From the sequence record NC_021190.1: DNA of 46,150 bases. One strand, given 5' to 3'. Position numbers: made by a program. Positions 21,001 to 24,000 of the stretch are shown here, one piece after another. The DNA is from Enterobacteria phage phi80. Numbering within the stretch: the stretch's first letter is position 1; each line of letters begins with the position of its first letter.

Positions 21001-24000
21001 ATCGTTGTGAATAACTCAACCCGGCCTCCGACAATCTACACCATTAATGCTTATTCGGCGTGCAGGTTTGACGGGGCCAATACGAGGATAAACGCAGGGG
21101 GGACCTCCACTGGCACAGGCTCTCCGGGAGGGGTAACGAATACTGGAATTTCCTTAACCGCGATAAATACAGCGGCCTATGACTGATTGATCGTTTTGGG
21201 CGATCAATAACTGATAATTGATCTATCAAACCAATTATACCCACCTCTTTCATGTTGGTATTGTCTAAGTTCATGAATACCTCTGGATACTATCAAAATG
21301 AGAAAACTGATTATCTGCATGGCAGGCGCTGTCATGCTTACAGGATGCGCTGGCGTAATTGAGAAACAGGAACCAGTTTGCAGCGGCACTGCAATCGTTG
21401 GCGGTCAGGAAACTACGGTTCAGATTTACGGTGTGCGTAAACAAAACAACCAGACGCAGTACCGGGCTGGATATCCTTTCAGCTGGCGCTGGGTAAGTGC
21501 GAATACATTTACCGAAACAACCTGCAAATAACCCACTACGCTTAAACATAAACCTCGCTCCGGCGGGGTTTTTTTATTGCCTGGAGAAAATATGCTTTAT
21601 AACACCGGCACCATCGCCATTAATAGAAATACCGCCACCGGGACGGGTACAAACTGGACGGCACCGGCCAGCCAGGTTCGCGCTGGCCAGACAATTATCG
21701 TGATGTCTAACCCGGTGCAACTGTTCCAGATTTCATCCGTGAACAGCGCCACGTCAATGACGGTTACGCCTGCCGCTTCCCCGGCGCTGAGCGGCCAGAA
21801 GTACGGCATTCTGGTATCAGATAATATCTCGGTTGATGGGCTGGCGCAGGCCATGTCGCAGCTTATCAAGGAGTATGACGAGAATATTGGTGCGTGGGAG
21901 ACGTTCGCCACAACCTCAGCCAACCAGAACATTACCGTTACGATCAATGGCACCAGTTTATCAATCCCGGCTCTTGGGAAATTACTGCAGAAGGGGAGCA
22001 ACGGAGCTTTGCCGGTTAATCAAGGTGGTACTGGCGCACCCTCGGCATGGGAAGCCACAAAAAATCTAAAAACATTAAGGACGATGGAGCGAAGATTTGG
22101 ACCAGGTGATGAGCCAAGAGATGGCGGCTGGTCCAATACTATTGGTTTTGTGGTGGGGCAAACGTCCACAGGGGCAAATGGAGCGTTTGTTGATTTTACA
22201 AGTTTCGATCAGTCGGCCAGGCTACAGATCATTGGTTTTTATTCTGACTCTCAAAACCACAATGGTGTCGGGTATAATCTGTGGCATCCCAACTTACAAA
22301 CATGGTATCCATTCACAACGCTCAGGGATAACAGAAACACAACCGTAGATTCGAACGGTTTCATAAAGGTTGCATCTCCCATTGTAAAGATATTCAGGGA
22401 TGGTAGCTATGAAACGAATGAAGAGTCGGAGGGAATTGATGTTACCCACATAAATACAGGTGAGTATTTGATAGCAGGTTGCACCGGCCTTAATGCAGAT
22501 GCAGCATGGGGAGGGATCGATGGTGGATTTGAAATTCCGGTAGACAGGAACAAGCTCGCGCGCATCTGGCTTGATTATGAAGTGAATGCTGATGGCTCTG
22601 TTCTGGTAAAAACATATCACCGTACACACCCGAAAGCGCCTGAGTTTGCAAGAAACGAAATCAACGGGTTAACTAATGGCGAGCCAGTAGACATTCCTGC
22701 AGATTCTTTTGTTTCCGTACGTGTTGAAATGCCACCAGATAGTATCTGGAACCAGCGACAGAATGATGCTTTGGAAGCAGACGTGCAGAAACCTACCTCA
22801 TAAGTAAAACCGCCGCAAGTCGTATGCAAGAACGTGCGGCGGCAGGCTGGCGTTCGTTCGATAGTGCGAGTATTGAATGATTTCCAGCCGCTGCGGATTC
22901 TACATATGCAATATGACAAAACAATGCTCTTATTCTGAAACCAACCACATATCGGACTCTTCAAACATTTCCTCCAGCATGCGGTTCAGTTTTTCCCGAT
23001 CGCTTTTGCTGGCATCGCTGTTTAAGCCGTTCGCCTGCATCGGCTTAACCTTCACTTCTGCATCCGGAAAGATCCGGTGCACTCGCTTTGTTAACTCATT
23101 CAGAATTATTTCTCTGGCACCTGTTAATCCTTCAACATTCCGTTTGTCGTACACCAACTCAACGAACATACCGCCTCCAAAGCAACAATGATTTTGCACG
23201 CAATTTATACTGTTTATTTATACAGTGTCAACGGTTGGGCACGTAGCTTTTTAAGGAAGGTTTTTGGGGCATGTATGGGGCATAAATGCCAGTTTTGGGG
23301 CATGGTTGGGACATTTTAACTCATATGAACTTAACCGAATTTCATATGGAGGCGTCTTATAATGCACTGATTAACCTAAAGAAAACACATGCTCTTGGGC
23401 GTTCTTTAGTGATTTTTAAAATGCCCGCGTCACGCAGTTAAAGTGGCGGGCATACTCTTCAAGGCTGGTGATACCCAACCGCACCCATTTAGGATGCGAC
23501 CATTGCGGCAGACCGATGTAAATCATAACGCGTGAAGGATCTCTTCCACGCTACGCACACGGGCGATGCGCGGGTAGATATGATTAATGCTGTTATTGTG
23601 TTGCTCGGCGCTGGCGGCACTACAGGCGTCTTCGGCAATCACCAGATTAAAGCCAAGTTCCCAGGCATTGCGGGCGGTGGATTCAACACCGATATTGGTC
23701 GAGATCCCACATAACACAATTGTATCGATACCTCGGCGGCGTAACCGCACCTCGACCATATTGCAGGATTTTACCGTTGGGTAATTTCATCCATCCATCA
23801 CCACTGGCAAAAAAAGCCATATCCGGTATCTGATTTTCCCCTGTTCCCACATCCCGTTTTGCCGCTTCTCCCAAACCAACCTTTCAAATATTTTTCTGAA
23901 TCAGGTGATATTTCGCCTCTTCTCCTGTTTTTACAACAGGAGAAGCACTCATGATTTACGGTTATGCCCGAGTATCAACAAACCACCAGGACACTGAATT

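Follow-up and report, generated by a model that had tools for sequence, protein, structure and literature searches.

The small lipoprotein gene at positions 21298-21531 (+) of the Enterobacteria phage phi80 genome (sequence record NC_021190.1, whose full 46,150 nucleotides (nt) are here called the window) is almost certainly cor, the conversion-resistance gene of phi80 and founding member of the Cor family, carried as a lysogenic-conversion moron. Each of the 77 residues of its product agrees with phi80 Cor (100% identity) as given in record FN582354.1 (protein CBH95076.1), where it is annotated as 'conversion resistant protein Cor precursor' and noted as blocking the TonB-dependent outer membrane FhuA receptor. 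The NCBIfam model NF047972 ('phage exclusion lipoprotein Cor') matches residues 1-76 of 77 with 140.9 bits against a cutoff of 31, and PHROG 1119 ('Cor superinfection exclusion protein') matches residues 1-77 with E = 7e-37. An earlier note, made from the DNA alone, had described a 77-amino-acid (aa) lipoprotein with the lipobox LTGC between the genes that follow J and the side tail fibre gene, and had assigned it to the Cor class from its size and location; the description is confirmed, and the assignment is borne out by these matches.

The cor gene of phi80 is already known, named and functionally characterised, and is annotated automatically by the Prokaryotic Genome Annotation Pipeline (PGAP) as 'phage exclusion lipoprotein Cor'. 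It is a textbook case of receptor-inactivating superinfection exclusion and carries little weight as a discovery. FN582354, a partial phi80 record, contains the same Cor protein, flanking genes and terminator as the window, with about 0.3% of bases differing overall and coordinates offset by 25 bases. Window bases 15000-24000 are 99.7% identical to this left-arm record, and bases 32062-38078 are likewise 99.7% identical to the phi80 immunity region X13065. Pfam gave no family above threshold for Cor, only weak matches to DUF4223 and MiAMP1, and PADLOC gave no matches for Cor, for its upstream neighbours gp22 and gp23, or for MorF, a second predicted lipoprotein considered below.

The alignment with Cor proteins that the earlier note suggested was run, and matches the Cor of phi80, N15, ES18, the HK/mEp phages and T1. 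Cor was found in 243 phage records by tblastn against a phage collection. Identity to the window's Cor is 79% in a group of HK/mEp lambdoid phages (e.g. HK75 and HK544), 63% in N15, 60% in ES18, about 40% in FhuA-dependent dhillonviruses and about 37% in T1 and its relatives. The Cor proteins of these phages have the same kind of lipobox, two conserved cysteines in the mature part and a length of roughly 75-80 aa, and their genes likewise follow gp22 and gp23 homologues downstream of J in phages that depend on FhuA (PMC13164509). Among 5,426 complete E. coli genomes, the same locus is found, and named 'cor' by PGAP, in 49; two matches reach at least 99% identity, one of them 100% identical and located in the laboratory strain XL10-Gold. 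Eight records labelled 'Campylobacter phage' (e.g. A16a, A110b and A13a) also contain Cor homologues (34-38% identity) that resemble those of T1-type coliphages. This is odd for Campylobacter, and the records may be mislabelled or contaminants.

The gene and the parts of its product lie as follows:

21298-21531, + strand: cor coding sequence, 77-aa precursor (open reading frame (ORF) scan, 100% identity to phi80 Cor, FN582354 annotation)
21298-21345, + strand: predicted Cor signal peptide, residues 1-16
21346-21348, + strand: codon of Cys17, the residue predicted to be lipidated (lipobox LTGC)
21346-21528, + strand: predicted mature Cor, a 61-aa lipoprotein
21529-21531, + strand: cor stop codon, TAA

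The full 77-aa sequence is MRKLIICMAGAVMLTGCAGVIEKQEPVCSGTAIVGGQETTVQIYGVRKQNNQTQYRAGYPFSWRWVSANTFTETTCK. Its N-terminus reads MRKLIICMAGAVMLTGC/AGV..., with MRKLIICMAGAVMLTG/C as the signal region up to the residue predicted to be lipidated; positive residues are followed by a hydrophobic core and then by the lipobox L-T-G-C, with the cysteine at residue 17. In E. coli, an alanine at position +2 sends a lipoprotein to the outer membrane (the +2 rule). Since residue +2 of Cor is alanine, not aspartate, the protein is predicted to be sorted to the outer membrane. In an alignment of 41 homologues, G16 and C17 are each kept in at least 90% of sequences, as is C28, and C76 is invariant, so both cysteines of the mature part are retained; an intramolecular disulfide has been stated for the Cor/Llp family (PMC9586334). 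In the stretch 21187-21575, whose first base follows the gp23 stop directly and whose final base is the terminal T of the terminator, cor is the single convincing ORF. Three ORFs on the opposite strand overlap the cor region; they returned no matches, and we regard them as chance. An Rfam scan of the whole window found no RNA family.

Two further elements bear on whether cor is a transcription unit of its own:

21256-21264, + strand: TGGTATTGT, candidate extended -10 (TGnTATnnT) for a cor promoter (conservation, FN582354 annotation)
21550-21575, + strand: rho-independent terminator of cor, a hairpin plus T7 (scan, folding, conservation, FN582354 annotation)

The hairpin and T7 reported earlier after the lipoprotein gene are thus confirmed as cor's own terminator. 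Its stem (21550-21571) begins eighteen bases past the cor stop and has nine pairs, five of them G-C, with the core CCTCGC/GCGGGG; the T7 lies at 21569-21575, its first three T closing the stem. The RNA has a folding energy of -14.9 kcal/mol, with z = -3.29 relative to dinucleotide shuffles. Hairpin and T-run occur in every one of the 33 distinct downstream sequences of related loci, with a variable loop, and a T-to-C change seen in relatives turns a G.U pair of the stem into G-C. Upstream, TGnTATnnT at 21256-21264 is kept in all 49 distinct sequences and coincides with the cor -10 annotated in FN582354, once the 25-base offset is applied. Transcription is predicted to start near 21272, and a weak Shine-Dalgarno-like GGA lies at 21285-21287. 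Judged from sequence, the terminator of this moron is established, and its promoter is plausible but predicted.

In a lysogen, we propose that cor would be transcribed from its own weak promoter of the extended -10 type and that transcription would end at the cor terminator, which would leave the downstream tail fibre gene silent because transcription stops there. During lytic growth, an antiterminated late transcript would instead read through the cor terminator into stf, the side tail fibre gene. In other lambdoid phages, such read-through results from late-gene antitermination. The arrangement resembles that of other lambdoid morons (lambda lom and bor, HK97 gp15), which like cor are small genes in the late operon with their own terminator and probably their own promoter, are expressed from the prophage and benefit the lysogen (PMC3594210). 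Their proteins and targets are unrelated to Cor; HK97 gp15, for instance, blocks DNA entry at the inner membrane rather than acting on a receptor.

The receptor of phi80 is FhuA (PMC10373560), and what Cor does to it has been described. According to PMC3594210 (citing Uc-Mass 2004), the Cor proteins of HK022, N15 and phi80 inactivate FhuA and lower ferrichrome uptake; lysogens with Cor exclude FhuA-dependent phages and are protected from colicin M (PMC3594210, PMC11436027). Infection by T1 is prevented by phi80 cor (PMC2885432). This has practical relevance, as phi80 is a notorious laboratory contaminant whose lysogens resist T1 and have impaired FhuA function. In the mechanism that we favour, the Cor precursor would be exported, cut by signal peptidase II at LTG/C and lipidated on Cys17, and the mature 61-residue protein would fold into a small beta structure with a disulfide between Cys28 and Cys76. 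Cor inactivates FhuA, the receptor of phi80's own J protein. Because of this inactivation, FhuA-dependent phages (phi80, T1, T5-type and others) no longer adsorb to lysogens, nor does colicin M, and the lysogen bears a cost in reduced ferrichrome uptake.

At the molecular level, Cor most likely attaches to FhuA on its periplasmic face, and this binding would shut, by an allosteric effect, the extracellular loops that the phage needs. By analogy with the T5 lipoprotein Llp, we consider it probable that Cor works in this way, from the periplasmic leaflet. An AlphaFold2 model of Cor built from the 41 homologues (mean predicted local distance difference test (pLDDT) score 83.6, above 90 in the mature domain) has a small five-stranded beta fold. 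The known structure that it matches best is T5 Llp in the FhuA-bound form (PDB 8A60 chain B), although only 13% of the structurally aligned residues are identical; a Foldseek search of the model against the PDB gave nothing significant. The similarity to Llp (8A60 chain B with FhuA; 7QJF) is three-dimensional, whereas a sequence relation is undetectable; Llp was not retrieved at E<=10 from all PDB sequences, either by phmmer with Cor or by hmmsearch with the 41-sequence Cor profile. Our modelled Llp-like fold agrees independently with three recent proposals: that Cor, with about 20% identity to Llp including the disulfide, 'likely functions in a similar way' (PMC9586334); that AlphaFold models of the phi80, T1, HK022 and mEp167 Cor proteins resemble Llp (bioRxiv 10.64898/2026.03.26.714494); and that an AlphaFold3 model places a T1-like Cor on the periplasmic side of FhuA with an interface predicted template modelling score (ipTM) of 0.84 (PMC13164509).

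Three points weigh against this overall picture of a self-contained transcription unit whose product closes FhuA directly. A scan for strict sigma-70 -35/-10 consensus found no + strand promoter upstream of cor. The molecular mechanism of Cor has been described as one that 'has not yet been elucidated' (bioRxiv 10.64898/2026.03.26.714494). Finally, the Cor of mEp167 reportedly interacts with OmpA, OmpC, OmpF and others (Arguijo-Hernandez et al.), which is a poor fit to a one-to-one complex with FhuA. The last point raises an alternative in which Cor is not a direct, Llp-like periplasmic ligand of FhuA but works through, or needs, OmpA, OmpC, OmpF or other proteins, for example by altering FhuA presentation or membrane organisation. 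The missing sequence similarity to Llp in the phmmer and profile searches leans the same way, as does the fact that no structure of a Cor:FhuA complex has been solved (bioRxiv 10.64898/2026.03.26.714494). Nevertheless, it is precisely the FhuA-bound Llp that the Cor model matches best in structure, the docked T1-like Cor of PMC13164509 sits on the periplasmic side of FhuA, and the occurrence of Cor is specific to phages that use FhuA (PMC13164509), so we judge an indirect action through other outer membrane proteins to be unlikely.

The comparison with Llp also raises the question of when Cor is of use to the phage. In T5, llp adjoins pb5, the gene of the receptor-binding protein, and is expressed early in the lytic cycle; expression of cor, in contrast, is from a prophage. 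Cor could nonetheless bring its chief advantage in lytic growth, keeping progeny virions from FhuA in the debris of lysed cells, as Llp does for T5, with the terminator and promoter being of minor importance. cor does lie inside the late operon, where an antiterminated late transcript would read it; strictly lytic T1-like phages and dhillonviruses carry it too, although unlike phi80 such phages do not perform lysogenic conversion; and a role in protection from debris is discussed for both Llp and Cor in PMC13164509. However, lysogenic conversion, in the form of T1-resistant lysogens, is what defined phi80 cor (PMC2885432, PMC11436027), and a terminator and an extended -10 element that are both conserved are in keeping with a separate transcription unit. 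The two roles are also compatible with each other. We therefore think it rather improbable that the lytic benefit is the main one, and retain the reading of cor as a gene that serves the lysogen.

The genes around cor are these:

16729-20208, + strand: J, host-specificity tail tip protein (1159 aa)
20210-20512, + strand: gp22, which opens the gp22-gp23-cor cassette (100 aa; PHROG 557, 'outer membrane protein')
20512-21186, + strand: gp23, in the middle of that cassette (224 aa; PHROG 425, 'membrane associated protein')
21592-22803, + strand: stf, side tail fibre gene; its ATG lies 60 nt past the cor stop and is preceded by a conserved GGAG

We gathered 80 viral contigs encoding a Cor with 77-100% identity and mapped the window's neighbouring proteins onto them. 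Correlations with Cor identity are given as Spearman's rho; as the loci are mutually related, the p-values overstate their independence, although the differences between genes are plain. The order J C-terminus-gp22-gp23-cor is contiguous in 77/77 loci that hold all four genes. The N-terminus of the side fibre begins 57-60 nt past cor in 68 of 70 loci, and its C-terminus is variable. The N-terminal 800 residues of J are mosaic (median 53% identity) and uncorrelated with Cor (rho 0.01); the last 200 residues have a median identity of 80% among the relatives. Cor identity co-varies most strongly with gp23 (rho 0.78), followed by the middle and C-terminal parts of J (about 0.5) and gp22 (0.44). 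The earlier note had suggested looking for co-variation with the C-terminus of the tail fibre, and none was seen in these same relatives (rho 0.16, not significant). Co-variation with gp23 and with J beyond its N-terminal part fits a Cor that acts on FhuA, the receptor of J, and not on a receptor of the side fibre. Taken together with the contiguous gene order, it indicates that gp22-gp23-cor and the receptor-binding end of J move as one unit.

As a mark of FhuA-dependent phages, this cassette is already in print. In PMC13164509 (citing Wietzorrek 2006), a three-gene cassette ('outer membrane protein', 'membrane-associated protein' and Cor) is listed for T1, HK022, N15, ES18 and phi80; all five are described as FhuA-dependent, and close relatives with other receptors as lacking the cassette. 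The same paper notes that gp22 and gp23 accompany Cor in phages that depend on FhuA, and that their role there is unexplained. The stf gene is context and no part of Cor function. Within its 5' part, FN582354 annotates an antisense moron, 'gene 25', with a promoter and terminator of its own (approximately 21597-21854, - strand).

The spacer of 111 nt between gp23 and cor holds two conserved inverted repeats, just upstream of the predicted cor promoter:

21178-21193/21201-21216: inverted repeat 1, core ATTGATCG-N7-CGATCAAT, gp23-cor spacer
21214-21220/21232-21238: inverted repeat 2, ATAATTG-N11-CAATTAT, with 9-bp arms in most relatives, gp23-cor spacer

Of the four ATTGATC heptamers in the window, three fall within these repeats (21178-21238), as do three GATC sites, and the repeats persist in loci whose gp23 has as little as 37% amino-acid identity. 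Conservation of the spacer is similar to that of the cor coding sequence and not clearly higher; nucleotide identity is 74% in the spacer vs 76% in the coding sequence for the most distant group of relatives, and 91% vs 86% for a nearer group. As Fur, FNR or CRP sites the repeats score 10/19, 7/10 and 7/10 at best, values that hundreds of other places in the window reach as well. As an RNA hairpin or terminator they also fail; no T-run follows, and the variants of the arms in relatives are not compensatory. These two features point to a DNA site, if the repeats are functional at all. They might form an operator for a host or phage regulator that makes Cor synthesis conditional, for instance matched to FhuA induction, instead of constitutive, but we hold this to be a doubtful proposition. 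No published regulation of cor was found in the literature examined. The fourth ATTGATC heptamer lies at 21942-21948 on the minus strand, just upstream of the annotated promoter of the antisense 'gene 25'.

A second predicted lipoprotein gene lies further upstream in the tail region:

16179-16637, + strand: MorF, predicted to be a lipoprotein of 152 aa with the lipobox ISGC; lies between tail genes I and J; promoter and terminator annotated in FN582354

The earlier note had remarked that two lipoprotein morons in one tail region are unusual and may reflect exclusion at two receptors. The first part stands as a matter of count, since MorF is rare: it occurs in one of the 80 cor loci, in 3 of 50,697 phage records and in 3 of 5,426 E. 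coli genomes. The second part has no support and is speculative, as nothing ties MorF to exclusion or to cor. It is true that Cor and MorF are both predicted lipoproteins of the phi80 tail region with promoters and terminators annotated in FN582354, as a two-part exclusion set against two different receptors might be. However, MorF is missing from 79 of the 80 loci that carry cor, and its rarity among these loci, phages and E. coli genomes argues that it is not functionally coupled to cor. Nor does MorF match any known exclusion family: neither Pfam nor PADLOC gives a match, its one NCBIfam match is below threshold, and it falls in PHROG 8179, which is labelled unknown function. Its predicted mature part of 134 aa is unrelated by sequence to the Cor/Llp fold family. 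We consider it very improbable that the two form such a set.

At the far right of the window, a near-perfect palindrome resembling a Fur box, TGATAATTATTATCA (46084-46108), matches the Fur consensus at 16/19 positions, more than any other site in the window. The last ORF (45352-46080) ends just before it, and the right cohesive end is some 45 nt away. The palindrome, which mEp237 and HK225 share, may be no more than a piece of the cos region. Separately, phi80-dependent lysis of a lysogen in iron-restricted medium has been described (PMC13449921).
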